Shown here in pieces: positions 5,644 to 36,625 of a DNA stretch of 64,000 bases (positions are counted from its first letter, which is position 1; the number at the start of each line of letters is the position of its first letter). The notes under the pieces were generated by a model. That model was not told the DNA's origin. It searched no databases and was given only the letters and a program-made list of their open reading frames with translations. The stretch lies in IMG/VR virus record IMGVR_UViG_3300032132_000001, positions 298,573 to 362,572 of that record. One strand, written 5' to 3'. This DNA is from a virus. A program made the position numbers and the translations under genes.

Positions 5644-6351
5644 GTGCCCAAAGCCTTAGATCCAGTCCTCGACCTCTACATGAGAGATGTCGGTAGGTAC
5701 GACCTTCTTAGTAAAGAAGAAGAGCTTGAAACAGCTAATCGCGTAAAAGCTGGGGATAAACAAGCCGCAGAGCATATGGTGAACTGCAATCTGCGGCTTG
5801 TTATCCACATCGCAAAGAAGTACTCCAGGATGGGCTATCCTCTAGACGACCTAATTGCCGCTGGCAATATGGGCCTCATCAAAAGCGTAGGACGATTCGA
5901 CCCAGATAAGGGCTATCGATTCTCGACTTACGCCACCTGGTGGATCAAGCAAACGATTCGGAAGCATCTCAGTGACAAGACGAGGACTATCCGAATCCCA
6001 AGCTACCAGCTCTCCGGTCCAAATGCAGAAGAGGTCAAAGCGAGGACTGCGTGTACCTCTTTTGAAACGCTGATTGGCGTAGATATCGAAGACAGCTACG
6101 AGAAATGCGGCGGCTTCGAAGACGCGCAGATGCTACGTGAGCTGCTGGACAGTCTAGATAAAAGGAAGCGTTTCATCATCGAGATGCGCTACGGCATGCG
6201 CCAAGGGATCGTTTTCACGCTGGATAAAGTGGGCGAAACCTTGAAACTCAGCAGAGAGCGAGTAAGGCAGCTTCAAAAGGAAGCTCTGGTTGAGATGAGG
6301 GAGCTTGCTAGCAAGCTTGCCTGTGTAGGGCCAGGTAAGACTCTAGACTAG
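5644..6351 (+). CDS. RNA polymerase sigma factor, sigma-70 family (regions 2 and 4)
   Basis: DLIAAGNMGLIKSVGRFDPDKGYRFSTYATWWIKQTIRK (region 2.x; FSTYATWWI is near-canonical) and TLDKVGETLKLSRERVRQLQKEAL (region 4.2 HTH). GTG start with a GAGGT SD. Confidence 0.75.
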   Translation: MPKALDPVLDLYMRDVGRYDLLSKEEELETANRVKAGDKQAAEHMVNCNLRLVIHIAKKYSRMGYPLDDLIAAGNMGLIKSVGRFDPDKGYRFSTYATWWIKQTIRKHLSDKTRTIRIPSYQLSGPNAEEVKARTACTSFETLIGVDIEDSYEKCGGFEDAQMLRELLDSLDKRKRFIIEMRYGMRQGIVFTLDKVGETLKLSRERVRQLQKEALVEMRELASKLACVGPGKTLD

Positions 6352-10165: not shown

Positions 10166-10708
10166 GTGACAGAATCTAGACACTGGAAAGCGCAAAGGTG
10201 CGCGATCCTTCTCGATGTACAAAACTTATTCTATGCGACCAAAAACAACTACAGTCGCACAATCGCATATGAGCGATTCTTAGACTGGGCCGCAAGAGGT
10301 CGGTCGCTTGTACGTGCTATAGCGTACACAGTAGAAAAAGCTGATGCAAACCAGGAAAGCTTCAAGCGCTTGCTGTCTGACATTGGCTGTGAACTAAGAT
10401 CTAAGCTGCTGATCGAAAGAAGTGACGGTTCCAGCAAGGGAAACTGGGATGTTGCGATAGCAGTGGATGCGATCCAGATTGCACCAAGCGTGGATGTTGT
10501 GATCCTCGGTACGGGTGATGGCGACTTTGCGTATCTGACTAACGCGCTCAAGTACATGGGAAAGAGAGTTGAAGTCACGTCAGTATCTAACTGCACAGCG
10601 ATGGATCTAATCCAAGCTGCAGATGAATACAGAGAGATACCAGAAGAAGTGATGATGCCAGCTCGGAGTTCTGGGCCTCGATCATATAGTCGCAAAAATA
10701 CTCCATGA
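10166..10708 (+). CDS. NYN-domain (LabA-like, DUF88) putative RNase
   Basis: AILLDVQNL ... GNWDVAIAVDAI ... VVILGTGDGDFAYL are the three conserved acidic motifs of the NYN/LabA domain. GTG start with an AGGAA SD. Confidence 0.6.
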   Translation: MTESRHWKAQRCAILLDVQNLFYATKNNYSRTIAYERFLDWAARGRSLVRAIAYTVEKADANQESFKRLLSDIGCELRSKLLIERSDGSSKGNWDVAIAVDAIQIAPSVDVVILGTGDGDFAYLTNALKYMGKRVEVTSVSNCTAMDLIQAADEYREIPEEVMMPARSSGPRSYSRKNTP

Positions 10709-10927: not shown

Positions 10928-11314
10928 ATGTCGCAAGACCTATACATTGATTGCTGTGATTGTGGTGAAGAATTTGTTTTCACCGCTGGTGACCAGGAGT
11001 ATTTCTCTCAGAAGGGTTATGAAGACCCGAAGCGCTGCCAGGGCTGCCGCGCTGCTCGTAAGGGTCGCCGCCCGGATAATTTCGGCAACCGGCGTACCAC
11101 CCCCGACCACGTAGATAGAAGAGACCGTGATCGTGGTAGGTACAACACTGAAGAAGTATTGCTTGACGAGCGCGCCCACTACAAGATCCGTTGCCGTTCC
11201 TGTCGAGAAGAAGCGTTTGTACCCTTCTTCCCGAAAGGCCCGGCTTGCTGCCAGCGATGCCACCACGAACAGAAGACCAGGACCGGCGGCAGAACGGTGG
11301 GCGCGCGTCACTAA
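10928..11314 (+). CDS. double zinc-ribbon protein (probable PF13451-type zinc-ribbon, two copies)
   Basis: CCDCGEEFVFTAGDQEYFSQKGYEDPKRCQGCRAARK fits CxxCGxxFxFxxxEQxFYxxKGxxxPxRCxxCR; a second, degenerate copy is CRSCREEAFVPFFPKGPACCQRCH. Confidence 0.45.
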   Translation: MSQDLYIDCCDCGEEFVFTAGDQEYFSQKGYEDPKRCQGCRAARKGRRPDNFGNRRTTPDHVDRRDRDRGRYNTEEVLLDERAHYKIRCRSCREEAFVPFFPKGPACCQRCHHEQKTRTGGRTVGARH

Positions 11315-11325
11315 GGAGACCGCGC

Positions 11326-11571
11326 ATGGCTATTAGCACCAAGATCAACAAGTCTAAGCACTGGTTGGTAGAGAAGTCCAGAAAGCGTCTTCTCTGCCAC
11401 ATCGAGCAGATGCCGCGCCTACAATTCACCTCTGGCGACATCACCAGCTTCATCGCCGGAAGGACTACCTACGCCGAGGCTTGGCGTCTCATTCGCGAAG
11501 CGGGTTCCGTCCGTCGTGTCGGTGCACCTCGTGGGACCGCGACCCTCTGGCGGAGAGCGAAGCAGCAGTGA
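11326..11571 (+). CDS. hypothetical small basic protein (81 aa)
   Basis: Internal ATG of the track ORF 11191-11571, placed right after the upstream stop with a strong SD (TAAGGAGAC, 7-nt spacer); [21 protein letters not shown]... Confidence 0.4.
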
Positions 11572-12131
11572 AGTTCAAGAAACCATCGCTCTTCAAGCTG
11601 TGCACCAAAGATGAAGCTACGCTATCCTTACCCTCTTGGCCAGTAACTCTGGAAGAGGGTAAGGAGGTCTTGATCCGGCTGCATCAGCATTTCAACCCAG
11701 ATGAGGGAGTAGGTCTGGCTGCCCCTCAGCTTGGAATCCACAAACGGGTATGCATGATCCATATCTCGGATGACAAGTACCCTGGTGGGTTCAAGCTAGA
11801 CTTGGTCAACCCTATAATCAGAAGCACAGCAGGCGAGACCATTCGCCATAAGGAGATGTGCTTCTCGGTTAGTAAGAGAACTCAGTATGCTGTAGCCAGA
11901 CATACTGAGATCACCGTGGAAGATGACCTCAATGGGGCTGTAACAGTCTCTGGTTTTCCAGCGTTCGTGGTCCAACATGAAGTGGACCATCTTAATGGGA
12001 TTACCATTCGTGCTAAGGGTACCAAGGTCGGAATGCGCCCGATAGTACGTAATGACGTCAAGGTTGGGCGAAATGCGCCTTGCCCTTGCGGCAGTGGTAA
12101 GAAACATAAGAAATGCTGCGGAGACCTATAA
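11481..12131 (+). CDS. def: peptide deformylase with a C-terminal SEC-C zinc-binding motif
   Basis: All three PDF motifs are present: [10 protein letters not shown] (GxGLAAxQ), EMCFS (EGCLS equivalent) and QHEVDHLNG (HExxH). C-terminus [14 protein letters not shown] is the SecA-type SEC-C motif. The start is ambiguous (ATG 11481 or in-frame GTG 11568, the latter abutting the upstream stop). Confidence 0.8.
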
Positions 12132-12466
12132 TGGACCAGCAAGCTCTTGGTAACGATGTCTGGGTGAGGGTGCTACCACCTGACGAGAGAACACCTGGTG
12201 GGTTGATCCTGCAAAGTGCAGAGAGCAACATGGGTGAAATCGTCAACATCGGTCCGGAAGTCCACGAGAAGCAGAAGCTCTACAAACCAAGCCAGCGGGT
12301 AGAAGCTGGAGACTTTATCTGGCTTCCTCGCGGCTCAAAGCTCGGAGAGCAGTACAAGGTTGGGAAAGAGATCTATATTCTCCTCCCCTTCACGCACTGC
12401 CGGTCGAAGTTTACTTCCCAGACTTCTTCGACGACCGACGCTCAGCTTTCGGCAACTTCCGCTTAA
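12131..12466 (+). CDS. groES: GroES-like co-chaperonin (cpn10 fold)
   Basis: Start at the internal ATG overlapping the def stop (TAATG). DVWVRVLPPDERTPGGLILQSAESNMGEIVNIGPEVHE...VEAGDFIWLPRGSKLGEQYKVGKEIYIL follows the GroES pattern (V.V....TAGGI.L........G.V.AVG.G......V..GD.V.F.KYGG.E........Y.I). Confidence 0.55.
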   Translation: MDQQALGNDVWVRVLPPDERTPGGLILQSAESNMGEIVNIGPEVHEKQKLYKPSQRVEAGDFIWLPRGSKLGEQYKVGKEIYILLPFTHCRSKFTSQTSSTTDAQLSATSA

Positions 12467-13043
12467 CCATTACCTTGTCGGCGAACCCGTACTTCACTGC
12501 TTCTTGAGCAGTGAAGTACTTGGTGTTCCGGTACATCTCCAAGAACTCTTTCTTGAGCATGCCCGTCCGTTCAAGGTAGATCTTGTGGACTGTCTGCTCC
12601 ACCTTCTTGGAGTGGTCTGCATAGGCTACTAGTTCCTTCGGAGTTCCCCAGAAGGATTCCTGGCCATCGTGTATCATCATGATAGCGTGTGGAGCCATGA
12701 TTCTTATGTCTGCGGCCTGGAAGATGATACTACCCATGCTCATGCAGTAGCCATATGCAGTGATGGTTACTCGGCAAGGGGAATTGCGAATAGCGTCGTA
12801 GACTGCCATGCCATGATAGTAGTCCCCGCCTGGGGAGTTCATAGTGACAGTGATCGGGTCCTTCGACACTGAATTCAGGATTGTGAACGATTTGATTGCC
12901 ATTTCAGCAATCTCGGCAGTCAACTCGTCGTCGTCGTCACTTCCAATGTAGATGTTTCTGTTTTCGACATCTAGATGATAATCGAAATAGCGCTTGATTC
13001 CTGCGTCTCGATCTTTGGGTTGCTTCCCTTCAGTCATCGCCAA
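12411..13043 (-). CDS. ClpP-family serine protease (S14)
   Basis: TVTMNSPGGDYYHGMAVYD...ITAYGYCMSMGSIIF...IMMIHDGQ aligns to the ClpP INSPGG / ICxGxAASMG / MIHQP blocks (Ser and His present). Convergent 56-nt overlap with the groES-like gene. Confidence 0.7.
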   Translation of the reverse strand: MAMTEGKQPKDRDAGIKRYFDYHLDVENRNIYIGSDDDDELTAEIAEMAIKSFTILNSVSKDPITVTMNSPGGDYYHGMAVYDAIRNSPCRVTITAYGYCMSMGSIIFQAADIRIMAPHAIMMIHDGQESFWGTPKELVAYADHSKKVEQTVHKIYLERTGMLKKEFLEMYRNTKYFTAQEAVKYGFADKVMVKRKLPKAERRSSKKSGK

Positions 13044-13750
13044 CTCCTACCACGGAACATTGTTTTACCATCGGTGATCTTAGCTTGCTCAAACTGAGCC
13101 GGCTGATCTCTATCAGTTGTGATGACGGTAAAACCTTGTTGCCAATTAGCCACGCCAGTGATATACTCTGGGCTCAACTCGCATAGGCAACCATTCTCTA
13201 CAGCGGTGACTTCTCCTCTACCATCCCGTTTGTAGTAGATTCCCAGTCGGTGGGTGTGTCCGAAGATTACTGTGCCATACTCTTCGGCCATCGCCTTCGC
13301 GGTGTACCCTGAGTACTTCCGCACAATATGGCCATGGGTGAACATCACGCCGTCGATGTTGACTTTATTCTCGTATGAGATGTTGAAGTCAGACAAGCGT
13401 AGGAGCTGTGGTACTGTCATTGACCTAAGACAGTACAGCTCCGGGGCTCTGGTAAGAAGATACCGCTGAAGGCGGTCTTCGTGGTTCCCCTCTGTAAAGA
13501 AGATCCGCGCACGGGGGGCGGCAGCCCGAACCTGGCCCATGAGGTCGTAAGCTATGTCGATGTCATCTTGCAACTGGAACTGCCGACTTGGTAGTTTCTG
13601 GAAGCGAGAGACCTGGTAGAAGTCTATCATGTCGCCCATAAGCGCGACGACATCAGGTTCAAGATCTTCTACGACCCTAAGGGCGACGCGCCATGCTTCG
13701 GGTGAGTGGTGGGGGACATGGAGATCCCCCAGGGCGATTATAGTCTTCAA
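13034..13750 (-). CDS. calcineurin-like metallophosphoesterase
   Basis: GDLHVPHH, GDMIDF, FTEGNHE, FTHGH and GHTHRLG are the canonical GDxH/GDxxD/GNHE/GH/GHxH motif set. Confidence 0.7.
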   Translation of the reverse strand: MKTIIALGDLHVPHHSPEAWRVALRVVEDLEPDVVALMGDMIDFYQVSRFQKLPSRQFQLQDDIDIAYDLMGQVRAAAPRARIFFTEGNHEDRLQRYLLTRAPELYCLRSMTVPQLLRLSDFNISYENKVNIDGVMFTHGHIVRKYSGYTAKAMAEEYGTVIFGHTHRLGIYYKRDGRGEVTAVENGCLCELSPEYITGVANWQQGFTVITTDRDQPAQFEQAKITDGKTMFRGRSWR

Positions 13751-13763
13751 TGGTACCTCTCCG

Positions 13764-14444
13764 TTAGTCTATGGAGAGAGGTTTTTCGGACACCTCTAAT
13801 ATCCGCGCCCACCGGGATGCGGGGACGTTGACGAACGAGACCTCTTGGCCTACCATGTCTACAGGGCGGAAGTAGCAGATTTCCTTCACGTTCACACGAG
13901 CTGGGACGTCGTTGAACGGGAATAGTAGAGGAATACCAATAACCCGCTGCACCTGATACGCCTCTCCTGGGCGATGGAAGCAGCTGGACTTTCCGTCGAT
14001 CGAGCAGACTTTCTTGCTGCTTGTGAAACCGATGCTGACGAATTTGAATGTCCCTCTCTGGATCCTGCGGATGGCCACTGGGTCCGTGACTTTTACGGTC
14101 ATCTCTAGGTATGCTTGATGGCGCTCATCGTCGTGCTTTACCTTTGTTTTTTGGATTACTCCGACAGCTTTCAGTGGGTCTCCCCAATCGTGTCCGAGCA
14201 ATACGAGGCGACCTTCATAGGTATGGCCATATTCTTTCAGGAGCTGTTCTGGGATGTCGTATCCCTTAGGTAACTTGCCAGCATAAATGGCTGCTAATCT
14301 AACGTAAAGAACATCAGGCGTAGCAGCTCTAGCTCTTGCGGGCCTTGAGCTTGTTTTTTCGACTGGTCCTGGCTTTGTTTGGATCGATGTTGACCCTATT
14401 AGCAGTGACCCTGCGAGCAACAGGACGATTGGTAAGTTTCTCAT
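13764..14444 (-). CDS. secreted hypothetical protein (226 aa)
   Basis: N-terminus MRNLPIVLLLAGSLLIGSTSIQT is a classical signal peptide; mature part has no recognised motif. Confidence 0.5.
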   Translation of the reverse strand: MRNLPIVLLLAGSLLIGSTSIQTKPGPVEKTSSRPARARAATPDVLYVRLAAIYAGKLPKGYDIPEQLLKEYGHTYEGRLVLLGHDWGDPLKAVGVIQKTKVKHDDERHQAYLEMTVKVTDPVAIRRIQRGTFKFVSIGFTSSKKVCSIDGKSSCFHRPGEAYQVQRVIGIPLLFPFNDVPARVNVKEICYFRPVDMVGQEVSFVNVPASRWARILEVSEKPLSID

Positions 14445-14829
14445 GGTTTTCTCCCAAGACTAACAATTTTCCAGCGCACTCTATGAGGTACTCAATCTGA
14501 GGGTCGATCTCAAATCGATCCCGCCTATCGAGCATGAAAGCTTGTTCGGGGTCCCACTGGTTCAACATCCCTGGGTGCAGTTCGTAGATCTGCTCTTGGA
14601 ACCACAAATAGGTCTCTATGATTGCGTTGAACCACGGTGGACTGTCGTCGCGTTCAAGTTCGACGTACATGGCAACCCTTCCACCCGGTTTAGCCAGTTC
14701 TTCTGGGTCTATTAGCAATACAATTTCGTTGAGGCCGCTCTTAGCTGCCCTTATTTCTTTTACGGAAACGAACCGTTTCGTCTTTATTCTGTATGTGTTT
14801 TTCACGGGGTATTTTTGAATAATTATCAA
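14329..14829 (-). CDS. hypothetical protein (166 aa)
   Basis: ORF; its 3' end overlaps the next gene by about 115 nt in another frame, so one of the two boundaries may be wrong. Confidence 0.35.
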   Translation of the reverse strand: MIIIQKYPVKNTYRIKTKRFVSVKEIRAAKSGLNEIVLLIDPEELAKPGGRVAMYVELERDDSPPWFNAIIETYLWFQEQIYELHPGMLNQWDPEQAFMLDRRDRFEIDPQIEYLIECAGKLLVLGENHEKLTNRPVARRVTANRVNIDPNKARTSRKNKLKARKS

Positions 14830-15167: not shown

Positions 15168-18100
15168 ATGAAACGACGTCTTATCAAGAACAAGAAGCTT
15201 GGATTCGTGGTCCGAGAGGCCGCTCCAGAAGATCCAGATCCAGAGTTCATCGAACCGGAAGATCTACCGGACGCGCCACGCCAGACTCACCGTGCTGGCG
15301 AGAAGTATATTGACCCTGATAAAAAGGACCCCGGAACCCCCATGGGCAAGGCCCGCAGGGATATTCCAGCAGGTCGGGGCCTACCAGCTGTCAAGAAGGG
15401 AGACCCGATACTATATCCTGGCCCTGGGCCAGAGAGACGGGAAATGGCTGCGCAGATGAAAGCGCAGCAAGAAAGGCGACCACAAGACATTGCAAAGGAA
15501 TTCGATAGCCAGTCTGTAATTGATGACGCCAATATGATCCATGGCCAGACCAAGCTGCGGACGAACCATCTAGCTCATCTAAACAAACTGCTTGACTGGG
15601 AAGGGGCTGAGGACGACACACGGGCTGCTGAAGCTAAGGGCGCGGTAATGCGTGCTATCACCAGGCACTCCGAAGCGCTGGCAAACCCGAAAAACGAAAA
15701 GCAAGAGAGCCTTTCCGACGAGATCGTCAGCAAGCTGAAAATCGCAGCGGCGTCAGCTGACGATCCAGATCTAGAAGGAATGGATCAAATAGAGGCAGAT
15801 GAACTATCTGCCAAGGCTACCAAAGCACTTGAACTAATAAGTGGAGATCTAATCTCGGTCGATGATTCCGAGATGGACGATTTCGAAGATATCCTCCCTG
15901 GCTTGGAGCGCGGTGAAAACGAGACCGACGAAGAGTGGATTGCTAGACTGAACGAACGCTATCGTCCACCGGAAGTAGATGAAGACACATGGCAAGAGTT
16001 CGATGACCTATTCATGGGTAAAGTGGATCCAGAAACTGGAGCACTAGACACTCTAACAAGGCAGGACATCACCTCAATAGAAAAAGCCAATGAGATGTCT
16101 ACCATTCGCGCAAGCGGTGATGGAGATCCGGAGCGTGAAGCCGCAGCGGGAATGAAGACCAGCTTGAAGCCTTACAAGACATTTATGAACAATGTCATGG
16201 CTATCAAGCAGGTAGATGACTACGACAAAAGGCGAGAACTGTTCAACAAGTACGCAACAGGCTTCGTGGCGTACATGAACCGCTATTCAGTCACAAACAT
16301 CGAAGACATTAAGACTGTAAGAGACCATGAGCGGGCTTGGAATAGCGTTGCCAGAAAGATTCTAACTATGGGTGGCGACCCGCGCCACATTAACCTTCTA
16401 GAAGAAGAGAATCGTCTAGACGCTTTCTCTAGAGACCTCATCAACATCGTGTCGTTCTACAGTCAAGAATCTGATGACAAGAATCTTAGTGCTATCTGGG
16501 ACGAGGAAGGCATTCTTCAACGTGTTGAGTACTATGAGGAGAAAGCTGCACCCCTAAGGCAGGCTCACAAAGCTGCAGAAAAGCAGAGAAGAAGTTGGGA
16601 TACTCAGGCTGAGAGAACCAAAGAAGAACTGAGAGGTGTTGGTAAGGAAGACCAAAAAGCCCGAAAGGCTGCAAAAGCCAAAAAGGAAAGAGCCGAGAAG
16701 TTCCAGGAAACTTGGACTGAGAAAGCAGAAGAAGCTAAGTCTAATCTGGATATAGTCCAAAAGCATATCGATTTCTACAGTGGTGCAGCTCAGCGATTCA
16801 CGGAACTCAAGGATCGCCAGCGAAACCAGCAGGAATCTTTTGCGTCTAGTTTGGTTGGTATCTCTAGTAGGCCAGAAGAATATCAGCAACTAATGACAGA
16901 GGTACAAGCTCTAAAGAATAGCGAAGAGCGTATTAAGAGGCAAGGTGGTAGAGCATGGTCAGTGCTTCAGGCAGCAGAGAAGAACTTCCAAGGTGTCCCT
17001 CCCCTTTCTGACAGCATGCTGAACACGCTAGGGCACCGCACTGGCAGCTTTGCAGCAAGGAAGGACCTAGAAGACCAGCTCCTCGCCATTTCGGAGACAG
17101 GACAGCTCTGGAACCCAGAAGATCCGGACTCTGAAGAACAACGGACAAAGCTTGTAGACCAGATTCAATCGTTGGAGAAATATTCAGAACTATTGGCTCT
17201 GCATGCAGAGCTTCTTGATGGAGTCTCTAAGCTAATCCCTCAAGAGTTGGGACTAGATGTAGAAGATCTACAAAGAGAACCTGTTAAGTTCCTGCAAGCT
17301 CTTGCTAGCTTCAAAGAGGCAGCAGACCAATCTGCAGCTGCGGGAGATCCACAGGCAGAAGAGAGATCAGCCCAAGCCGATAGACTTGAACAAGCTTCTA
17401 CCCAATTGGCCAATGTCCGTACTCAGGTAGCTGAAAAAGCAGACATCATGGGTCACATCGACGTGGAGTGGATGGGATCTGGCCTAGACAAAGACGATGA
17501 CGAACTGAAGGGTCACGGCGGTGGAATCGAGCGTCTAGTTGGCATTCTACGTCACATTTTGGAAAATGATGGTCAAGTACCACCAGAAGTTAGAACTGAT
17601 ATGGCCAACCAACATGGCCGACTAAAAGAGAGATTAGAAGGGGAAGTAGAGTCGCTCAAGCGTATCGCAGCGATCCGTGTACGAATGGAGAACTCCAAGT
17701 CGGATCTGGAGGTGTTCAATAGGTCGCTACAAGAGCTACACCAGGAAATCAAGAAGCTTGGAATCGTACGAAAGTACAAGGCGCACGACGAGCTATTGCG
17801 TCTGCTAGAGCAGTCGGAACCAAAATACAACGAAGATAGCTTCCATCAAGCAGTGGAACATTGGAAAAGCTTGGCTGGAGCTTCAAAAGACCGGAAGCGT
17901 CTAAGAAACGTGATGGCTCTCCAGAAGGAGCTTGGGTCCCACGAGCCGGGAAGCGACAGCTGGAAGAACATCTATTCCCAAATCCAGGAAACGATCGACC
18001 AAAGCGGCCTTGGCGACGAAATCATTCCATCAGAAGAAGACGAAGAAGACTCAGAGTTCATGGACGTGCCGGAAGGTATGACCGCCGATGAGCTAGATGA

Positions 18101-21100
18101 CTACGAAGAGGAAAACGCTCCTACTTCTATCAACAAGGCTTTGGGTAAAGCAAAAGGCGACTTCGACCCGGCGTCGTTCAGCAAAGCAATGAAAGAATGG
18201 GACCGTCTGAAACTGTCCCATGATGTCACTTCCGGGAAGGGAGAGGTAGGTGAATTCCTAAACACCTACATGGCTCAATTCAACAAGCCGATGTCCTACC
18301 AGATCATCCCTCTGGGCGCTGGTTATGTTGCGATTATCGACATCAGAATCAAGAAGCTAAAAGATCTATACCATTATCTTGAGCAGATTCGTACTGGGAA
18401 AGATGATCCGGCAGATAAAGAGTCTGAAGATCTTCCTAGCGGCATAAAAGAGCAAACTGCCGCTGCGAAGGCTAAAGAGGAATTCAGAAAGAAGGCTATT
18501 AAATCTGGCGAAATCGACCCGAACGATCCAGAAGAGAATAGAATCGACTCGGCCGACCTGTTCAACGCCCTTGGATCTCATAAGTATAAGGTAGTTGGAT
18601 CGGCCGCTCGCCGCGCTGACACATGGCAGAAGTACGGCACATTCCAGAAGCTGGTAGAGGCGCAAGAAAAGGTCCGCAAGAAAGTTGGTGACCTATTGGA
18701 CCAACTATATGGCATAGGCCAATGGCACAAAGCTCTAAAAGACCCAGAATTGCATTTGCCGCCGGGGCTGTTCCATGCTACTGGGCCAATTCGACCAGAA
18801 GACCTCACCGACAGAGGTGCTAGCCAGGGTGTGCGAGTAGAGACTGCCCCAGAAGACAAGCTGGTCGGTCTCAACACTATGCAGCAACTACATCGAAAGA
18901 GTGAAGGAAAGGCTCTAAAGGCTGAAGCGAGAAGAGCAGAAGCAGAAGAAGAGATCGCTATACTAAGGAATGCTACTCCAAACAGATTAAAGCAGAGTGG
19001 TGTTCACCTTGGGTGGGATAGTAATATTCCATATGAAAAACTCGCTTTCATGTACCAAGATACTGATTCGCCATTTTATTACAAAACTGTGAGGAACCAG
19101 CTCGCTAAACTATCTCTCCAAGGTAGTGGTGGGTCAGTAGATGAAAGGAATCTTCATAGGCGCTTGAGGAAGCTTGAAGGCCGTGCTAAGCATGCAAGAA
19201 AGATGTCTAAGATCGCTCGGTCTAAAGAGAAAGCTTGGAGGAAGCAACTTCTGTTCCTCGGAGCGCTGGCAGATGAACGCCCTGACCTATCTCCAGAATA
19301 TCTCAAAAGAAGAAGAGTGGAGATTGAGCGCAAAATAACTGAGTACAACAGTGAAAGGCGCGCATTCAACGTGAAAGTTCGTGATGTTCGCGAAGAGATC
19401 AAACAGTACAACTCTGCTAGCTGGCAAGATCTGAACACACGAGATAGGAGCAAGACCAAATCAAAGTCTGGAGGTCTGCTTGCGCCAGATGAAGTTCACC
19501 TAGCGTACGGGTTTGTTGAATATGTTACCAATACTATCAAGAAACTGGAAGGGAGAATCACTGCCGCTAATAACTCTTTGATAGGTGCCAACCAGAAGAG
19601 TACGATCGACGCCAAAAAGAAAGCGATGCTGAAGAATGCCATCAACTATCTGCTGGGAGGGCGCGATTCGTCTGGCGAAGAGATCCCGTTACACACAGTA
19701 ACAGAATATGGCCCGGACCAGAACAAGACGGTAATGTTCAACCCGGTGGTGGAGATGTATGGCTTGCGCCCATATGCCGGTAAGGGCGAGTATATGCCAC
19801 ATATCCCTCACAGGTACATGAGCGAAGAAGAAATAGACAACCGCACAATGTACTCTGCGTTGGATGCTTGCATCGATCAGCTGGCTACGATCGTTTCCGA
19901 TGTCGTACTCTACCTGATGGGTCACGGCAAGCTAATGGTTCGTGGTCATGGGTTTGCCACCGAACGTGGTTGGGCTTTCCTTCTTGCTGGTGTAGTCCAA
20001 CCATCAGCTGGCAAAGCAGGCCCAGGAAAAGCAACCGCCCTACAGAGAATTGGTCGCGACCATCTCTACTCAGTACAACTAGAAACCGAAGCGCGGGCCC
20101 TCTGGAGAGAAGGCGACGTAGACAATATCGAGATCCTATCTAAGCTCTTGAATGCTCACAGATTGAGCCGACCAAAGGGCTTTGAAGATGCGAATCTTCA
20201 ATCATTCCACCTAGCAGAGCATCTTGATAACTTCGTCGCCGATGAAGAAGGCGAAGAAGCTGAAGTAGATCAAGAGGGAATAAGGCAGCTAGCTGGAGAC
20301 GTAAGCTACAGTACAATCAAGGGTGTGATCTCTTCCTACGATAGAGTCCTGAAGAATGCTAATGAAGCTAAGGAAGCTGCGGCTGCCAGAATAGAAGAAG
20401 CACTCGAAGAAAGTGGAGAAACTCTTGAAGGGGATGAATTAGAAGATGCTATCGAAGAAGAGTGGAAGAAAGATGGGTACGGGTCCGCTATTCGATCTCT
20501 TAATTTCTACTCTAGGCTCAACGATGGTTTCAGTGAAGATGAAGCCAAAGAAATGGCAGATCGCGCTGACGGACCGAACAATCCGAGTGTCATTCAAAGG
20601 CGTCTAGAGCAAGCTGGAACGATGGAAGAGGAGCATCTTAGAAGAGTAACTTTCGCTAAGGAAGCTATCAGGCGAGCGGTGGCGGGTGCTGGATCGGTTT
20701 CTCCGCGCCTTCTCCGAAAGATCTACACTTCTGGTACCGGAGTCCTCAAATCGGTACTAGACGATTTCAAGGATGAACAATCAGCTGGCGCGAGCATCGG
20801 CGAAAGACGAGAGAAGATCAGCCATGCGATCGCTATGAATGATACTCGCGCATCTCGGATGGATGGCAATGTAGAGATGATAACTCCAAATATGGAGGCA
20901 GCCCAGGAGGCAGGAGATGAAGCGCTAATCAAGCACTATGCTTCATATATTGAAGCATGGGAAGATCACGCCGTCGAACTGCGAAATGAAATCGCTGAAC
21001 TTCAAGTACAAGATAGAGAGCTTGCTAAAAAGGGAGAAGATCTACCAGGCAAGGAACTCAACATAGATGGAATTAAGCACACGCTCAATTGGCATCGCGC

Positions 21101-23156
21101 TAAGATGCACGATGCTAGGAAAATGGACGAGCGCAGACGTGCTGAAGAAGGGCGGCTAACTAAGCTCTATCAAAACGCCAAGATGGCTCAAGAAAGAGTA
21201 GACGCGGAAGACCTCCAGATAATGATGACCGGCGGTGAAGAAGGATGGCTAGATGTTGGTCTGCTTGCACAAGAACTTGGTCTTAAAGGATCGCAAGCCA
21301 AGCGCATCAGCCAATTGGTAAATGGAGCTAGGAAAAGGACCGCTGCCGGAATCAAGAAATTGGGTAAGCCGGCGGCGATTCTAGCTAGTGGGATGGAAGA
21401 AGCGCAAAAAATCGCTGTTGGCCAAAGATATGCGCTAAACCAGAAGATCAGAGAACTACTAGAGGACTGGATCGAAGCTAAGAAGATCCCTTCTGAACTT
21501 CCATCTCGACACCGTACTGATAAGACGGACAGTACTCTTGGAAGATTCGACCAACGCGCTAAAGAATTCAACTCACCGGACATGCGCGGTGTTGGAGCAG
21601 GAAAAGTAAGAGCAGCCGATAAAGCAAGCAGCAGCGCATTGGTACTTGCAAGAGAGCTATACAGTTCTATTGGAAGCCAGCCAACTACCATAGATGAGAT
21701 TGAAGGGATCCTACAGTCTGGCCTTCAGGACAGCCGTAAGAATTTGGCCCTCTCCCGGAGGCTGTTACAAAGTTCAGAAGAAGAGCTGAAAGAAGCAATT
21801 ACTCAAAATAAAGAGCGGGAGAGATTTACCAAGTTCACGATGGACACCTTAACTAGACTGGCAGCTCACGAAGAGTTGAACCAGAAAGAAGGTGTAGAAG
21901 TGCCTCTGTTCGACGAATCTGGTCGTGTAAACATGGATATCACCGACTGGGTTCGTAATTGGGATTGGAAAGATGTCCAGAGACGAATTTCTGTAAGTGG
22001 CACCTTCCAAGAGTCGATGTCAGAAAAAGAGTTGGAAGAGTATCGTCAAAAGAGAGCAGAAGCTGCCGCTCGCGAGACCGAAGAACAACAAGCGAAATGG
22101 AATAAAGCGAAAGCCTGGCAACCATCGGACGAGCCAATCCGAGGAGAGCGTGGTACTGCTGGGATGGGCCATAGCAAGAGGGATGACCAACTTGCAAGAG
22201 AGGTGTCGGTCCCTCTTGGTAGCGTAGGACATGCAGAACTTATTGGCAACAAGTGGGAAGCTCTAACTGGTGTACGAGTCGTCGAGATTGACGAATATGG
22301 AGATAAGGAAGAGTCAGAAGAGGTAACAGCTGAACTCACCGGAATGATGGGTGGCAGAAGGAAAATCAGGATCAGAGCAAGCGGACAAGCCGACCCAGAT
22401 GCCGACTATAGGGTAGTGGGGCTCGCCGGCAAGAGGACTATTTCCCTGGACAAAGAAGTTGCGATTAAGATCACGCCTCCGCTTCCAGCGGAGACCATCG
22501 GTAAGGGTGACCTAGTTGTAATTGAAGGGGTAGACGACGCACCGTACATCAACGGCCTGAAAGGCCACATCCGGACTGTCGATTCCAAGCGTAAGCTGGT
22601 GGTAGTGGACCTATTCAAGAATGCTGTAGTCGAAGATAAATCGGTAATACTACAGTTCAAGGAAGTCTATCCTTACTATATCCAGGAAGGCTCCCGAAGG
22701 TTCAGCACGGCACCGACAGTGAGTATAACAAACCTCATTCAAGAAATCTTCGGTAGAAAGAGGATTCTAGAAAAAGCAGAGTGGAACCTGATTCCACTCT
22801 CTCTGCGAGACGGTCTTAGCATCTGCCTCACCGAAGCGATCACTTCTGACAACTGGGAAGCAGCTGAGAGAGCTACTAACCGCTTCATCCAAGATGTAGT
22901 TGTAAGCGAATCGGTGAGCGACAAGATCACCAACAAACTGAAGGTAGCATGGGGTAAGAAGTACTCACCGAAGATCTGGCGGATGGAGATCGACAAGTCT
23001 CGTAAGAGCCGAGGGTTGGCAACTCACAGGGAAAAGCTAGCCGCAAACGGTGGCTCTTCGACTACTCGATCTATCGCAGACCAGTGGATGAAAGGTCGCT
23101 CGGGAATGTCCGAAAACCAGATGGACAAAATTCTCGACACGATGCGCGATGACTAA
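15168..23156 (+). CDS. giant highly charged protein (2662 aa), probably an alpha-helical/coiled-coil structural or ejected virion protein
   Basis: Single uninterrupted ATG-initiated ORF of 7989 nt; E/K/R/D/A/Q-rich with long heptad-like stretches; I found no Walker, polymerase or protease motifs; several antisense ORFs inside are composition artefacts. Confidence 0.7.
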   Translation: MKRRLIKNKKLGFVVREAAPEDPDPEFIEPEDLPDAPRQTHRAGEKYIDPDKKDPGTPMGKARRDIPAGRGLPAVKKGDPILYPGPGPERREMAAQMKAQQERRPQDIAKEFDSQSVIDDANMIHGQTKLRTNHLAHLNKLLDWEGAEDDTRAAEAKGAVMRAITRHSEALANPKNEKQESLSDEIVSKLKIAAASADDPDLEGMDQIEADELSAKATKALELISGDLISVDDSEMDDFEDILPGLERGENETDEEWIARLNERYRPPEVDEDTWQEFDDLFMGKVDPETGALDTLTRQDITSIEKANEMSTIRASGDGDPEREAAAGMKTSLKPYKTFMNNVMAIKQVDDYDKRRELFNKYATGFVAYMNRYSVTNIEDIKTVRDHERAWNSVARKILTMGGDPRHINLLEEENRLDAFSRDLINIVSFYSQESDDKNLSAIWDEEGILQRVEYYEEKAAPLRQAHKAAEKQRRSWDTQAERTKEELRGVGKEDQKARKAAKAKKERAEKFQETWTEKAEEAKSNLDIVQKHIDFYSGAAQRFTELKDRQRNQQESFASSLVGISSRPEEYQQLMTEVQALKNSEERIKRQGGRAWSVLQAAEKNFQGVPPLSDSMLNTLGHRTGSFAARKDLEDQLLAISETGQLWNPEDPDSEEQRTKLVDQIQSLEKYSELLALHAELLDGVSKLIPQELGLDVEDLQREPVKFLQALASFKEAADQSAAAGDPQAEERSAQADRLEQASTQLANVRTQVAEKADIMGHIDVEWMGSGLDKDDDELKGHGGGIERLVGILRHILENDGQVPPEVRTDMANQHGRLKERLEGEVESLKRIAAIRVRMENSKSDLEVFNRSLQELHQEIKKLGIVRKYKAHDELLRLLEQSEPKYNEDSFHQAVEHWKSLAGASKDRKRLRNVMALQKELGSHEPGSDSWKNIYSQIQETIDQSGLGDEIIPSEEDEEDSEFMDVPEGMTADELDDYEEENAPTSINKALGKAKGDFDPASFSKAMKEWDRLKLSHDVTSGKGEVGEFLNTYMAQFNKPMSYQIIPLGAGYVAIIDIRIKKLKDLYHYLEQIRTGKDDPADKESEDLPSGIKEQTAAAKAKEEFRKKAIKSGEIDPNDPEENRIDSADLFNALGSHKYKVVGSAARRADTWQKYGTFQKLVEAQEKVRKKVGDLLDQLYGIGQWHKALKDPELHLPPGLFHATGPIRPEDLTDRGASQGVRVETAPEDKLVGLNTMQQLHRKSEGKALKAEARRAEAEEEIAILRNATPNRLKQSGVHLGWDSNIPYEKLAFMYQDTDSPFYYKTVRNQLAKLSLQGSGGSVDERNLHRRLRKLEGRAKHARKMSKIARSKEKAWRKQLLFLGALADERPDLSPEYLKRRRVEIERKITEYNSERRAFNVKVRDVREEIKQYNSASWQDLNTRDRSKTKSKSGGLLAPDEVHLAYGFVEYVTNTIKKLEGRITAANNSLIGANQKSTIDAKKKAMLKNAINYLLGGRDSSGEEIPLHTVTEYGPDQNKTVMFNPVVEMYGLRPYAGKGEYMPHIPHRYMSEEEIDNRTMYSALDACIDQLATIVSDVVLYLMGHGKLMVRGHGFATERGWAFLLAGVVQPSAGKAGPGKATALQRIGRDHLYSVQLETEARALWREGDVDNIEILSKLLNAHRLSRPKGFEDANLQSFHLAEHLDNFVADEEGEEAEVDQEGIRQLAGDVSYSTIKGVISSYDRVLKNANEAKEAAAARIEEALEESGETLEGDELEDAIEEEWKKDGYGSAIRSLNFYSRLNDGFSEDEAKEMADRADGPNNPSVIQRRLEQAGTMEEEHLRRVTFAKEAIRRAVAGAGSVSPRLLRKIYTSGTGVLKSVLDDFKDEQSAGASIGERREKISHAIAMNDTRASRMDGNVEMITPNMEAAQEAGDEALIKHYASYIEAWEDHAVELRNEIAELQVQDRELAKKGEDLPGKELNIDGIKHTLNWHRAKMHDARKMDERRRAEEGRLTKLYQNAKMAQERVDAEDLQIMMTGGEEGWLDVGLLAQELGLKGSQAKRISQLVNGARKRTAAGIKKLGKPAAILASGMEEAQKIAVGQRYALNQKIRELLEDWIEAKKIPSELPSRHRTDKTDSTLGRFDQRAKEFNSPDMRGVGAGKVRAADKASSSALVLARELYSSIGSQPTTIDEIEGILQSGLQDSRKNLALSRRLLQSSEEELKEAITQNKERERFTKFTMDTLTRLAAHEELNQKEGVEVPLFDESGRVNMDITDWVRNWDWKDVQRRISVSGTFQESMSEKELEEYRQKRAEAAARETEEQQAKWNKAKAWQPSDEPIRGERGTAGMGHSKRDDQLAREVSVPLGSVGHAELIGNKWEALTGVRVVEIDEYGDKEESEEVTAELTGMMGGRRKIRIRASGQADPDADYRVVGLAGKRTISLDKEVAIKITPPLPAETIGKGDLVVIEGVDDAPYINGLKGHIRTVDSKRKLVVVDLFKNAVVEDKSVILQFKEVYPYYIQEGSRRFSTAPTVSITNLIQEIFGRKRILEKAEWNLIPLSLRDGLSICLTEAITSDNWEAAERATNRFIQDVVVSESVSDKITNKLKVAWGKKYSPKIWRMEIDKSRKSRGLATHREKLAANGGSSTTRSIADQWMKGRSGMSENQMDKILDTMRDD

Positions 23157-25285
23157 TGCTCATTTTCACCACCGGAAGGATCAAGAGGGTTCTTAGCGAA
23201 GCGGACATTTCCGTAAAGTCTGGTAGCCAAAGAGGTTCGACCGAACCAGGCTCCCCGACGTCCCTCAGACTAGAAGCAGACCTAATTTTTTCAGGTCAAG
23301 AGTATACACGCCTGAAGCAAGAATTCCAATCAGAGCATGAGTCGGAATTCGATGATATCAGGATGAAGCTTGAGGAAATGCTGGGTCAGCCCTATGGTGA
23401 TCCTCCTCGCTCTCTTTCCAAGACTCAGGTTAGAAATCTGCTGTCGGCGCTAAGAGATGTTCACCAAGGGAGCTACAAAGACTGGCGCAAAAAGTACAAG
23501 GATGAACCCCCGAAAGAGAAGCACTATACGGACCGCCCACGGCGAGGAAAGATCAAGAAAGACAGCGACAGAATAGTATATGAGCTAGATTCTTCTGATC
23601 AATTGCAAGAGATTGTACTATTCCTCAACAAGATGGCAAGTGACCCAGATAGAATCCTGAATCTGCAGAACATGCTGAAGCAAGTATATGGCACTGAAAC
23701 TTATCCTTCAAGCGTCTTCTTCCGACAGCTAGAAGATCAAGTAAACGCAGGAGATCAAGAAGTTGTAGATCAATCGTTCCCAGAGGACGAAATAGAAGCT
23801 TTGTCGATGGGTCAATGGGTACTCCTCAAGTCTCTTGTAAACAGGAGGAGATTTATAAAGTCATTGAAAGTGTTCGATAGACGATACAATGATAGAGATA
23901 AGACAAGCAAAGAATCGCGCTCTGCTCTTCGCAAATATGCAGGTGCGATCCGCGACTTAGCTGGTAGAGTTAGTGCCTCTGTAGTGCCAACTAAGACCGT
24001 CCAATTCAGCATAATACCAGATGCTGAAACTGGACACTTCATCGTGCGGAAGTTCATCAATTCCGGCGGCGAAACAAGTACAATAGACACCACCGAAGGC
24101 CCAAGCGGCCCGATTGTGGCTCGTCACCAAAAAGGTGATCCCAATTGTGCTACTGCGATAGTTAGAGCCCAAGCCTCTACTTACAAAAAGCAAGGGTACG
24201 AAAGAAAGAAGGAAGAATACAGGGAAGATGATGAGGTCCATGAGCTTCTCAAGAAGACTTCCAAACTATTCGGATCGGGTTTCGATCAGTTCGTTGTAGA
24301 CCAACACCAGAAGAAGCTCGCTGACAAAATAAAAGAAGAGTTCGCTCCAATGAGCGAGCCTTGGCAGTTAGTCTTCCTAGGCGAACATGGAGACCAAATC
24401 GGTCGATTCAAGGCTTTGTACGGTAGAGCTGAAGATAGAGTATATGCTATCAAGGCTGAGTCGTCTGTCGCTTTGGGAAACAAGTTCGCAGAGCTACTAG
24501 AGAAAGAGCTAAGAGGACAAGATTTTAGCATAGCCAGATTGGCAGATCCTCTCCCCAACAGCAGACCGAATGGATTTGTATTCCAAACGTCGCTAGATGG
24601 AATTACCGATGTGGCTGCCGGATTAGACAGGCTGGATGATGAAGAACAGCCTGATATCGAAATCTTCCTACCTGGCATCAAGCATATGATTGCCACTGTA
24701 GTGCAAGATATGCTATATGACTACGAAGACACTCATGGGCCAAGCGAAGAACCTATCCCAGAGTATGAAGCTCTCCAGATGGATGATAGGACTAGGAAGA
24801 TATTCAGGAAATGGTTCAGTAAAAGACAAAGACCATTCGCTATCGATCACAATATGATAAAAATCGAAGGTGGCGAGATTGTTGCCCCTATCGGTGCGAA
24901 TCCGCAACCAGAGAAGGAAGTAGATCCGGAACTTGCTAATAATCCGGAAGTGCAAGATCTAATGGCGATCTTGCGTGGAGAAAAGAAGGGCGAGATCCAA
25001 GATTTCGGCCAGTGGGAACTCCACCGGATGTTCAAAGACCTACAAGATGCATCTACAGATCAAGAGGGAAACCCTATCAACTGGGCTAAAGTTGCACAAG
25101 ACTTGGGTCTAAGGAAAAAGACCCGAGATGAGTTAGAGAAAGAAGTCCAGAAGACAATGGACATCGGGAGATCTGGCCCACGACCGGAATATGTATCAAA
25201 GCCTGAGGAAGAACTGGAAGATCTCCCAGAATCTAAGATAATCGATGTGATCGCCGATCACACCCCGGAACATCCATCATGGTAG
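23156..25285 (+). CDS. large acidic hypothetical protein (709 aa)
   Basis: Start overlaps the stop of the giant gene (TAATG); D/E/K-rich. Confidence 0.6.
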   Translation: MLIFTTGRIKRVLSEADISVKSGSQRGSTEPGSPTSLRLEADLIFSGQEYTRLKQEFQSEHESEFDDIRMKLEEMLGQPYGDPPRSLSKTQVRNLLSALRDVHQGSYKDWRKKYKDEPPKEKHYTDRPRRGKIKKDSDRIVYELDSSDQLQEIVLFLNKMASDPDRILNLQNMLKQVYGTETYPSSVFFRQLEDQVNAGDQEVVDQSFPEDEIEALSMGQWVLLKSLVNRRRFIKSLKVFDRRYNDRDKTSKESRSALRKYAGAIRDLAGRVSASVVPTKTVQFSIIPDAETGHFIVRKFINSGGETSTIDTTEGPSGPIVARHQKGDPNCATAIVRAQASTYKKQGYERKKEEYREDDEVHELLKKTSKLFGSGFDQFVVDQHQKKLADKIKEEFAPMSEPWQLVFLGEHGDQIGRFKALYGRAEDRVYAIKAESSVALGNKFAELLEKELRGQDFSIARLADPLPNSRPNGFVFQTSLDGITDVAAGLDRLDDEEQPDIEIFLPGIKHMIATVVQDMLYDYEDTHGPSEEPIPEYEALQMDDRTRKIFRKWFSKRQRPFAIDHNMIKIEGGEIVAPIGANPQPEKEVDPELANNPEVQDLMAILRGEKKGEIQDFGQWELHRMFKDLQDASTDQEGNPINWAKVAQDLGLRKKTRDELEKEVQKTMDIGRSGPRPEYVSKPEEELEDLPESKIIDVIADHTPEHPSW

Positions 25286-35944: not shown

Positions 35945-36625
35945 ATGCCTATCATCATCGAAATCCGTGCCGGCGAAGGCGGCAAGGACTCCAAGCTTTT
36001 CATCCACGATCTAGCGTCAGCATATATCAAGTATGCTAACAACCTAGGTCTCAAATCTGACCTGATCTATACCTCGGAGAGCCAAGTATCTCTGAAGGTA
36101 AACGGAGACGCTGAACAGCACTTCCAGCACGAATCTGGTAAGCACTGTGTCCAGCGCGTGCCCCCGACTGAGAATAAGGGGCGCTCTCACACCTCCACGA
36201 TCACGGTAGCAGTCCTCCCGATCTTAGAGCACGTCCATGTAGACGTACCAGATAGGGACATCGAGATAAAGACGCAAGGTGGTTCTGGGCCAGGCGGTCA
36301 ACATCAGAACAAGACTGATTCTGCTGTTCGCGCCACCCACAAGCCGACCAACATCCGAGTCTTTATCAACGGGAAGGATCAACACTCCAATCGCCGGAAG
36401 GCGATCCAAATACTCAAATCCAGGATTGCTGCTCTAGAGCAGCAAAAGGTGGACGAAGAGCATAATGGAGAGCGGTTAGGTCAGATCGGTTTCGGAGGTC
36501 GCAGTAACAAGATTAGGACTTACAACTTCATAAAGAGTAGAGTTGTAGACCACCGACTGAAGACTAAGACTACACAGATCAAGAAAGTAATGAAGGGAAG
36601 GTTTGACCTGATACTGCAAACATAA
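35945..36625 (+). CDS. prfH: PrfH-like class-I peptide chain release factor of RF1 type, lacking domain 1 (226 aa)
   Basis: Aligns to RF1 domains 2-4: EIRAGEGG, CVQRVPPTENKGRSHTSTITVAVLP (RF1 RVQRVPATESQGRIHTSAxTVAV; the PxT tripeptide is PPT), GGSGPGGQHQNKTDSAVRATH (GGQ motif) and RSNKIRTYNFIKSRVVDHR (RTYNFPQGRVTDHR). About 110 N-terminal residues (domain 1) are absent, which is the architecture of RF-H. Confidence 0.75.
   Translation: MPIIIEIRAGEGGKDSKLFIHDLASAYIKYANNLGLKSDLIYTSESQVSLKVNGDAEQHFQHESGKHCVQRVPPTENKGRSHTSTITVAVLPILEHVHVDVPDRDIEIKTQGGSGPGGQHQNKTDSAVRATHKPTNIRVFINGKDQHSNRRKAIQILKSRIAALEQQKVDEEHNGERLGQIGFGGRSNKIRTYNFIKSRVVDHRLKTKTTQIKKVMKGRFDLILQT

Follow-up and report, generated by a model that had tools for sequence, protein, structure and literature searches.

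In Escherichia coli, the C-terminal helix of peptide deformylase (PDF) inserts between uL22 and uL32 beside the exit tunnel (summarized in PMC12690207). Viral PDFs have been described as having no ribosome-binding C-terminus (PMC5591237). A different element, the SEC-C zinc knuckle of SecA, can bind ribosomes by itself: when fused to SUMO, the SecA metal-binding domain sediments together with 70S ribosomes in a manner that depends on its cysteines, and it crosslinks to uL23 and binds SecB (PMC6620043). A SecA-like domain is also carried by the methionine aminopeptidases (MetAPs) of many bacteria (Cranford-Smith et al., 10.1101/613315). The present study concerns a 64,000-nucleotide stretch of the IMG/VR virus record IMGVR_UViG_3300032132_000001 (positions 298,573 to 362,572; hereafter the window), in which a PDF and a SEC-C knuckle are encoded as one protein, PDF::SEC-C. 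Genes for a GroES-like co-chaperonin, a ClpP-like protease, and a calcineurin-like metallophosphoesterase follow. An original prediction, made from the sequence alone, had read these four genes as a single proteostasis cassette. Here, we report that PDF::SEC-C is a recurrent fusion that is restricted to viruses in our census, and that the interval from the PDF gene to the phosphoesterase gene consists of the meeting ends of two separate convergent operons.

The open reading frame (ORF) at 11481-12131 matches the Pfam family Pep_deformylase (PF01327) with 90.2 bits against a cut-off of 22.8, and PHROG 2890, "peptide deformylase," with an E-value of 3.9e-20. The gene had been drawn from position 11481; its most likely start is instead GTG 11568, which overlaps the TGA stop of the preceding ORF81, lies downstream of a GGAGAG motif, and gives a protein of 187 aa. 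The independent gene caller used for a public assembly also chose this start. Six residues (Q54, E96, C98, H137, E138, and H141) are invariant among 30 PDF::SEC-C proteins and comprise the metal ligands, the catalytic Glu, and the Gln of motif I. In the window protein, motif I reads VGLAAPQ and motif III has the form HExxH, with the metal ligands in place. An AlphaFold2 model has a pLDDT (predicted local distance difference test score) of 92.8, and its core ends near residue 154. The C-terminal alpha-3 helix of type 1B PDFs is absent from this model, in which no helix is found after residue 150; a linker of lower confidence and a zinc knuckle stand in its place.

The knuckle occupies the last 18 residues of the protein, which match SEC-C (PF02810) with 35.2 bits against a cut-off of 20.4 and contain the CXCX8C(C/H) ligands as well as the conserved Ser. 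Structures that align with the tail are those of the SecA zinc-domain peptides 1SX0, 1TM6, and 1OZB, the last determined as a complex with SecB, and that of the YchJ C-terminus (9L6B). Seventeen of 21 residues are identical to those of E. coli SecA. With the SEC-C domain of SecA and the SecA-like domains of YecA, YchJ, and MetAP, the tail shares the CXCX8CC spacing, the conserved Ser, a basic surface, and attachment at a terminus through a flexible linker. It differs from them in being carried by a PDF, and its partners are predicted only. The comparison with described viral PDFs (Vp16, cyanophage S-SSM7, and the marine type 4 enzymes) is complementary. Those proteins likewise have a conserved phage-encoded core and no alpha-3 helix, but they end early, whereas a SecA-type knuckle follows the core both in the window protein and throughout a large set of proteins confined to viruses.

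The distribution of the fusion was examined with a DNA pattern that specifies HExDH, a spacer of 14-24 codons, and N-x-P-C-x-C-G, and that was applied identically to IMG/VR and GTDB. The pattern draws a sample, since it accepts only CAT for the first His and a limited spacer, and it would miss the window's own gene. In IMG/VR it finds 72 matches; 68 are in-frame ORFs, and PDF motifs I and II are present in 64. Contigs longer than 100 kb account for 18 of the 72 and contigs longer than 200 kb for 10. In GTDB species-representative genomes (596 Gb in total), the same pattern has eight matches, each of them in a metagenome-assembled genome (MAG); two are in frame, and none is a PDF. When homologues were inspected for the tail, it was found in 21 of the 80 best IMG/VR PDF loci, the others having different C-terminal extensions or a basic helix. 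In a collection of 5.8 billion proteins, both Pfam domains are present in most of the best 120 matches, on contigs of up to 545 kb, with one named cluster member assigned to a bacterial MAG; this search favors shared short words and is therefore biased toward the tail. A tblastn search with the PDF returned distant phage PDFs only, none of which spans the tail. These data show that the unusual fusion is real, recurrent, and virus-restricted in this census. A full-text literature search for "peptide deformylase" together with "SEC-C" returned no relevant description of it, and the main papers on viral and accessory PDFs make no mention of a SecA-type tail. In a rough neighbor-joining tree of the catalytic domain (187 tips), the tailed PDFs fall into a few large clades with seven parsimony changes, which suggests stable inheritance rather than sporadic fusion.

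A second type of tail was seen during this comparison. About 40 other viral PDFs of approximately 211 aa (IMG/VR loci L025-L086; for example, L025 6035-6670) share a distinct, conserved C-terminal extension that ends in NDKIVMKSPxGExVEVKYKKANxYFLQGYEIV. Viral PDFs thus bear several alternative tails and are not truncations alone.

We infer that the SEC-C knuckle replaces the lost helix as a ribosome dock, and by analogy with SecA a ribosome tether is its likeliest role. The knuckle would place the enzyme near the polypeptide exit of host ribosomes, where a docked PDF could efficiently deformylate phage nascent chains during mass synthesis of phage proteins. The original prediction had suggested that the tail might tether the enzyme to the ribosome or to SecB-like partners, and published data on the SecA domain agree with that suggestion. 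A different role is somewhat unlikely, yet it has evidence of its own: the tail could link the enzyme to SecB or connect it with the Sec pathway and the membrane, or it could sense metal or redox state and thereby turn the PDF on and off. The SecA-type knuckle also binds SecB, iron, and membranes (10.1101/613315), residues that contact SecB are retained even where SecA-like domains occur in other proteins, and azide disrupts the binding of SecA to membranes. The C-terminal cysteines of YchJ form a redox switch that mediates dimerization dependent on reactive oxygen species, and the genome studied here also encodes an Fe/Mn superoxide dismutase. Three features of deformylation argue for the ribosome instead. 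PDF works on nascent chains at the exit tunnel; the ribosome-binding helix is exactly the element that the tail replaces; and MetAP, the enzyme that follows PDF in the pathway, has the same domain in many bacteria and binds ribosomes. A role with SecB would also depend on a host that has SecB.

The PDF gene (def) belongs to a plus-strand operon in which the order is NYN, a 55-aa ORF, zf_Tbcl, ORF81, PDF::SEC-C, and the GroES-like gene; the NYN gene is its first recognizable member, and def and groES end it. The opposing minus-strand operon begins with ORF166 and continues with a 226-aa protease-fold ORF, the phosphoesterase gene, and the ClpP-like gene. Two junctions described in the original prediction were confirmed by reading the sequence: the def stop and the groES ATG overlap in TAATG at 12129-12133, and the convergent reading frames of groES and clpP overlap by 56 nt (12411-12466). 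The first of these supports translational coupling of def and groES, which are adjacent in all four genomes of the lineage, namely the window and three related metagenomic contigs, L003, L004, and L089. A hairpin formed by a perfect 13-bp inverted repeat begins 23 nt past the groES stop, inside the clpP coding sequence, where it encodes YFTAQEAVKY. L003 retains it through a compensatory synonymous T>C / A>G pair, and the corresponding site of L004 is occupied by a strong hairpin that differs from it. This hairpin is probably the terminator of the plus-strand operon, placed within the convergent gene. Promoter scans of the locus did no better than scans of shuffled sequence.

The original prediction had proposed a profile search of the GroES-like protein, and the protein passes it. 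Pfam Cpn10 (PF00166) is matched with 25.6 bits against a cut-off of 21.1, and PHROG 3188, "co-chaperonin GroES," with an E-value of 2.1e-8. A profile built from the four lineage homologues matches 18 PDB chains, all 18 of which are Cpn10/GroES, with E. coli GroES at 1.1e-5; a search of the PDB with the single sequence returned nothing significant. The score lies below the NCBIfam cut-off for GroES equivalogs (15.9 versus 136 bits). A GGLIL segment aligns with the GroEL-binding GGIVL of E. coli GroES in a loop that is three residues shorter, and the mobile loop is degenerate in the protein of L004. The protein ends in a Ser/Thr-rich tail whose coding sequence extends over the 3'-terminal 56 nt of clpP. 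This tail is missing in L004 and L089, which indicates that the overlap between groES and clpP is incidental.

The phage T4 co-chaperonin gp31 works with host GroEL. The window protein resembles gp31 and the phage co-chaperonins of PHROG 3188 in being a small Cpn10-fold protein that retains a hydrophobic mobile-loop tripeptide and has no GroEL gene in sight nearby. It differs from gp31 in that its length and loop are closer to those of cellular GroES, in its nonconserved Ser/Thr tail, and in the position of its gene directly behind that of the PDF. By analogy, the GroES-like protein most likely partners host GroEL, which it would cap, as gp31 does, to fold large phage proteins.

The ClpP-like ORF (12411-13043, minus strand) matches Pfam CLP_protease with 112.8 bits. 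Its most likely start is ATG 13037, which overlaps the phosphoesterase stop in an ATGA junction. The best profile matches, PHROG 94 (169 bits, 5.9e-49), 2976, 133, and 1684, are all annotated "head maturation protease," and NF045542, "head maturation protease, ClpP-related," is matched with 121.1 bits against a cut-off of 120. All models of ATP-dependent ClpP (TIGR00493 and related NCBIfam models) failed, with scores of 61.7 versus 308.6, 89.3 versus 228, and 87.7 versus 249. All 82 homologues compared have Ser97 and His122, and 75 of them have Asp171, which is replaced by Thr in the window and in L003. The positions of the pocket that receives the IGF loop of ClpX/ClpA (Tyr60, Tyr62, and Leu114) are Thr, Thr, and Ala in the window protein and vary across the family, and no gene for an AAA+ partner is annotated in the window. 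Thus, the protein shares with cellular ClpP a full-length alignment and the Ser-His pair, whereas the scores, the triad Asp, the docking pocket, and the lack of a visible partner ATPase gene set it apart.

The genes around related proteins point in the same direction as the profiles. In 28 of the 80 closest IMG/VR relatives, the ClpP-like gene has a terminase, portal, or major head gene no more than 8 kb away: a large terminase in 21, a Phage_portal-type gene in five, and a PHROG 752 major head gene in four. The terminase-linked relatives often form an array of ClpP, TerL, and proteins of 677, 490, 160, and 335 aa. In the viral contig L090, a portal gene lies 8 kb upstream of the ClpP-like gene, a major head gene 6 kb downstream of it, and a gene for a T5 A1-like phosphoesterase at a distance of 1.3 kb; the order portal, ClpP, major capsid protein recurs in L092. 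The window protein also resembles the ClpP-related head-maturation proteases in being a stand-alone protein of approximately 200 aa. It departs from them in its Thr for the triad Asp and in its setting, where the gene is coupled to a metallophosphoesterase gene, stands beside that of a putatively exported assemblin-fold protease, and has no recognizable head gene near it in the window. Its sequence suggests that it is most likely an ATPase-independent protease of the head-maturation type rather than a component of ClpXP-style quality control, and its substrate would be a capsid protein. In L004 (3234-4307, minus strand), the ClpP-like ORF is 357 aa long, with a Cys-rich, HNH-endonuclease-like segment of approximately 150 aa fused in frame at its N-terminus.

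The placement of the four genes in one proteostasis cassette must be weighed against this layout. The four domain assignments on which the original prediction relied (PDF with SEC-C, GroES, ClpP family, and phosphoesterase) were all borne out by profile searches, and the same gene order occurs in L003, L004, and L089 (PDF identity to the window of 74% in L003 and 58% in L004; ClpP identity of 59% in L089). The flanks are collinear as well, including glycosyltransferase, NUDIX, and giant-protein genes, so the four-gene order reflects shared descent and is no specific sign of functional coupling. Outside the lineage the association dissolves: in the fetched flanks of a few kilobases around 72 further viral PDF::SEC-C loci, GroES is found at none and a ClpP-like gene at two. 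Among the 80 best IMG/VR PDF loci, GroES lies within 6.5 kb in L007 and L014 only, and a ClpP-like gene in one. PDF-GroES as a general pair was rejected on these grounds, being seen only in this lineage apart from L007 and L014.

The cassette reading has partial support for def and groES and none for clpP and the phosphoesterase gene, which are in the opposite convergent operon. A single unit in which the PDF, GroES-like, ClpP-like, and phosphoesterase proteins serve proteostasis together, with a cytoplasmic protease that acts on nascent or misfolded proteins and not on the capsid, is in our estimation unlikely. Adjacency in four genomes, retention of the full ClpP length including the handle region, the lack of a recognizable structural gene nearby, and the ClpP-like genes at two of the 72 other loci are in its favor. 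The hairpin terminator between the convergent operons, the extension of synteny over whole flanks, the lack of GroES at all 72 and of ClpP-like genes at 70 of these loci, and the rarity of GroES near the best PDF loci (two of 80) are not. The specific proposal that the protease belongs to a co-translational unit and is not of the prohead type finds no support, because its gene is coupled to the phosphoesterase gene and not to def and groES, and its best scores are with head-maturation families; the loss of the triad Asp, the unconserved docking pocket, and the lack of a visible unfoldase gene also speak against it. We judge a role in the prohead to be more probable for this protease than one of the ClpXP type.

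The phosphoesterase itself matches Pfam Metallophos (PF00149) with 34.5 bits against a cut-off of 21.5 and PHROG 221 with an E-value of 1.8e-46, and it contains all five metal-binding blocks (GDLH, GDMID, GNHE, HGH, and GHTH). A PDB search with its single sequence gave nothing significant; lines for methionine aminopeptidase with E-values of approximately 0.6 are noise. The ATGA coupling to the ClpP-like gene is conserved in L003, L004, and L089. A general ClpP-phosphoesterase module was rejected, as the pairing is found at six of 85 loci, four of which are the lineage members. The other two, L090 (10001-13513) and L108, are unrelated viral contigs with a ClpP-like gene close to a metallophosphoesterase gene, which in L090 is a T5 A1-like "DNA transfer protein." Their pairing suggests that the link may exceed lineage synteny.

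The 226-aa ORF upstream of the phosphoesterase gene was not called by the Logan gene caller on the window's contig, and the JGI call on L003 includes a 221-aa homologue. It is conserved in L003 and L004, absent from L089, and represented by approximately 80 cluster representatives. H85, S137, E201, and S203 are invariant in the family, in keeping with an assemblin fold with His and Ser. Six of 32 relatives match Peptidase_S78, and six of 32 match DUF2213; the window protein has no Pfam match and scores 18.1 against 59 for TIGR01543, and a PDB search with its single sequence returned nothing significant. In 27 of the 32 members, a basic residue near the start is followed by at least 12 strongly hydrophobic residues, and four members have a lipobox-like motif. 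By its sequence, the protein seems to be a capsid-protease-fold enzyme that is exported or anchored in the membrane, an odd property for a prohead protease. Its candidacy as the true prohead protease, which would free the ClpP-like protein for another role, was rejected as the simplest reading because of the signal-peptide-like N-termini and the missing gene in L089. In some relatives the domain forms part of a larger protein, of 400-1,180 aa. The ORF overlaps ORF166 by 116 nt (14329-14444) in a different frame; both ORFs are conserved in relatives, and gene callers resolve the overlap differently between contigs.

Our studies lead us to favor, by a modest degree, an account in which two convergent operons of what is likely a huge phage encode a deformylase that would dock on ribosomes, a GroES-like protein that would cap host GroEL, and a ClpP-like protease of the head-maturation type. 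Several observations weigh against this account. The conserved aromatic residue of the SecA domain (the Tyr of KKYK) is His in the window PDF. No GroEL gene was seen in the 64-kb window of the approximately 396-kb genome. NF045542 is passed by only ~1 bit, the alignment of the ClpP-like protein with genuine ClpP covers the whole length, N-terminal region and handle included, and 52 of its 80 relatives have no recognized head or packaging gene within 8 kb. In this lineage its neighbors are the genes for the phosphoesterase and the putatively exported protease, with no recognizable capsid gene in 64 kb. The assignment to a phage is made by gene content and not by an identified capsid, portal, or terminase gene. 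Finally, motif II of the window PDF is EMCFS instead of EGCLS; some PDFs become less active or inactive when residues of motif I or II are changed, although such changes are not always fatal (PMC12690207); and the score of the protein is below the NCBIfam equivalog cut-off TIGR00079 (85.3 versus 103.95 bits).

These last points could mean that the window PDF is degenerate or repurposed: with EMCFS it might be an inefficient catalyst that still binds ribosomes or formylated N-termini and, for example, shields or sequesters them. The two substitutions (Gly to Met and Leu to Phe) are shared with its two closest relatives, and motif I and II substitutions lower the activity of type 3 PDFs. EMCFS retains the Glu and the Cys ligand, however, and the metal ligands, catalytic Glu, and Gln are all invariant; the rest of the PDF::SEC-C family has the canonical EGCLS, so that EMCFS is a feature of this lineage; some PDFs are active without the exact motifs; and the core is modeled at high confidence. 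A degenerate or repurposed enzyme appears decidedly improbable.

Table 1. Features of the two convergent operons, with positions counted from the first nucleotide of the window.
Feature	Position	Strand	Basis or remark
NYN-domain gene, predicted RNase	10166..10708	+	Pfam NYN 109.5 bits; same place in L003, L004, and L089
55-aa ORF	between the NYN and zf_Tbcl genes	+	plus-strand operon
Treble-clef zinc protein zf_Tbcl	10928..11314	+	PF13451 54.7 bits; conserved in L003, L004, L005, and L089
ORF81, 81 aa, no family match	11326..11571	+	sequence, gene call, homologues in four relatives
PDF::SEC-C, 187 aa	11568..12131	+	PF01327 and PF02810
SEC-C / SecA metal-binding segment of the PDF	12069..12122	+	Pfam SEC-C 35.2 bits
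GroES/Cpn10-like co-chaperonin, 111 aa	12131..12466	+	Pfam Cpn10, PHROG 3188
Perfect 13-bp inverted repeat (hairpin)	12489..12519		within the clpP coding sequence
ClpP-family serine protease, 208 aa	12411..13037	-	Pfam CLP_protease, NF045542, PHROG 94
Calcineurin-like metallophosphoesterase, 238 aa	13034..13750	-	Pfam Metallophos, PHROG 221
226-aa assemblin / HK97-gp4 / T4-gp21-type protease fold, His85, Ser137	13764..14444	-	upstream of the phosphoesterase
ORF166, 166 aa, no family match	14329..14829	-	homologues in L003, L004, and L089

The window lies within a 176,964-bp Logan contig of SRR9663116, and the same PDF is found on assemblies of 397,419 and 395,473 bp. A megablast search with 15 kb around the locus gave no match among 50,697 deposited phage records. 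Genes around the locus encode a sigma-70-type factor, a NUDIX protein, glycosyltransferases, HNH endonucleases, an Fe/Mn superoxide dismutase, an adenosine deaminase, and epimerases, as well as dUTPase, thymidylate kinase, APS kinase, Hc1, two patatins, and a short release-factor-like protein. Many ORFs around the locus are orphans, and the window contains no tRNA. No capsid, portal, or terminase gene was recognized in the window with PHROGs on 38 large ORFs and with precomputed Pfam matches for all called genes. The genome of approximately 396 kb is most likely that of a huge phage. Although the missing head and packaging genes and the many metabolic genes (superoxide dismutase, epimerases, thymidylate kinase, and the release-factor-like protein) might suggest a bacterial chromosome or megaplasmid with cellular housekeeping paralogues, a nonviral origin is highly improbable, given that most ORFs have no homologues, that HNH endonucleases, a phage-type sigma factor, and two capsid-maturation-type protease families occur without tRNA or ribosomal genes, that two independent assemblies are nearly equal in length, that the nearest relatives of the PDF and of the ClpP-like protein come from IMG/VR viral contigs, and that PDF::SEC-C is absent from the prokaryotic genomes searched with the DNA pattern.

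Several other genes of the window deserve mention. An acidic, Glu/Lys-rich orphan of 2,662 aa (15168-23156, plus strand) is followed by a 709-aa ORF (23156-25285, plus strand); the two genes diverge from the ClpP operon and may encode structural proteins. The counterpart of the giant protein is 2,242 aa long in L089 and truncated in L003. The 709-aa ORF was considered as a possible portal and set aside: it matched only itself among 5.8 billion proteins and has no Pfam match. A class I release-factor-like protein of 226 aa (35945-36625, plus strand; partial PCRF 97 bits, RF-1 80 bits) is another translation-related gene. Auxiliary genes that are unusual for a phage (25955-26623; ~63.4-63.7 kb; 5644-6351; L002 1-392) encode the Fe/Mn superoxide dismutase, an Hc1 histone-like protein of a family best known from Chlamydia, the sigma-70-type factor, two patatin-like phospholipases, and a phosphoenolpyruvate mutase, the last just upstream of the window.

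The new element at this locus is the PDF::SEC-C architecture; phage genes for GroES, a ClpP-type protease, and a phosphoesterase are of known kinds, and their adjacency is lineage synteny. We tentatively propose, as a possibility that falls short of an even chance, that PDF::SEC-C constitutes a virus-only class of PDF in which the C-terminal helix has been exchanged for a SecA knuckle, parallel to the MetAP-knuckle fusions of bacteria. Such an enzyme would serve phages, many of them huge, by docking at the exit tunnel and competing there with SecA, SecB, or host processing factors for nascent chains, and in this lineage it may be co-expressed with a GroES-type co-chaperonin as a nascent-protein maturation module. 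Few auxiliary genes in marine viromes are more abundant than those for viral PDFs, and the description of these PDFs as proteins without a ribosome-binding C-terminus poses the question of how they reach nascent chains. The presence, on a large, virus-restricted subfamily, of a domain that in SecA binds ribosomes near the exit tunnel makes that question testable. If the tether is true, it would broaden the notion of SecA-like knuckles as general modules by which enzymes acting on nascent chains dock on ribosomes.

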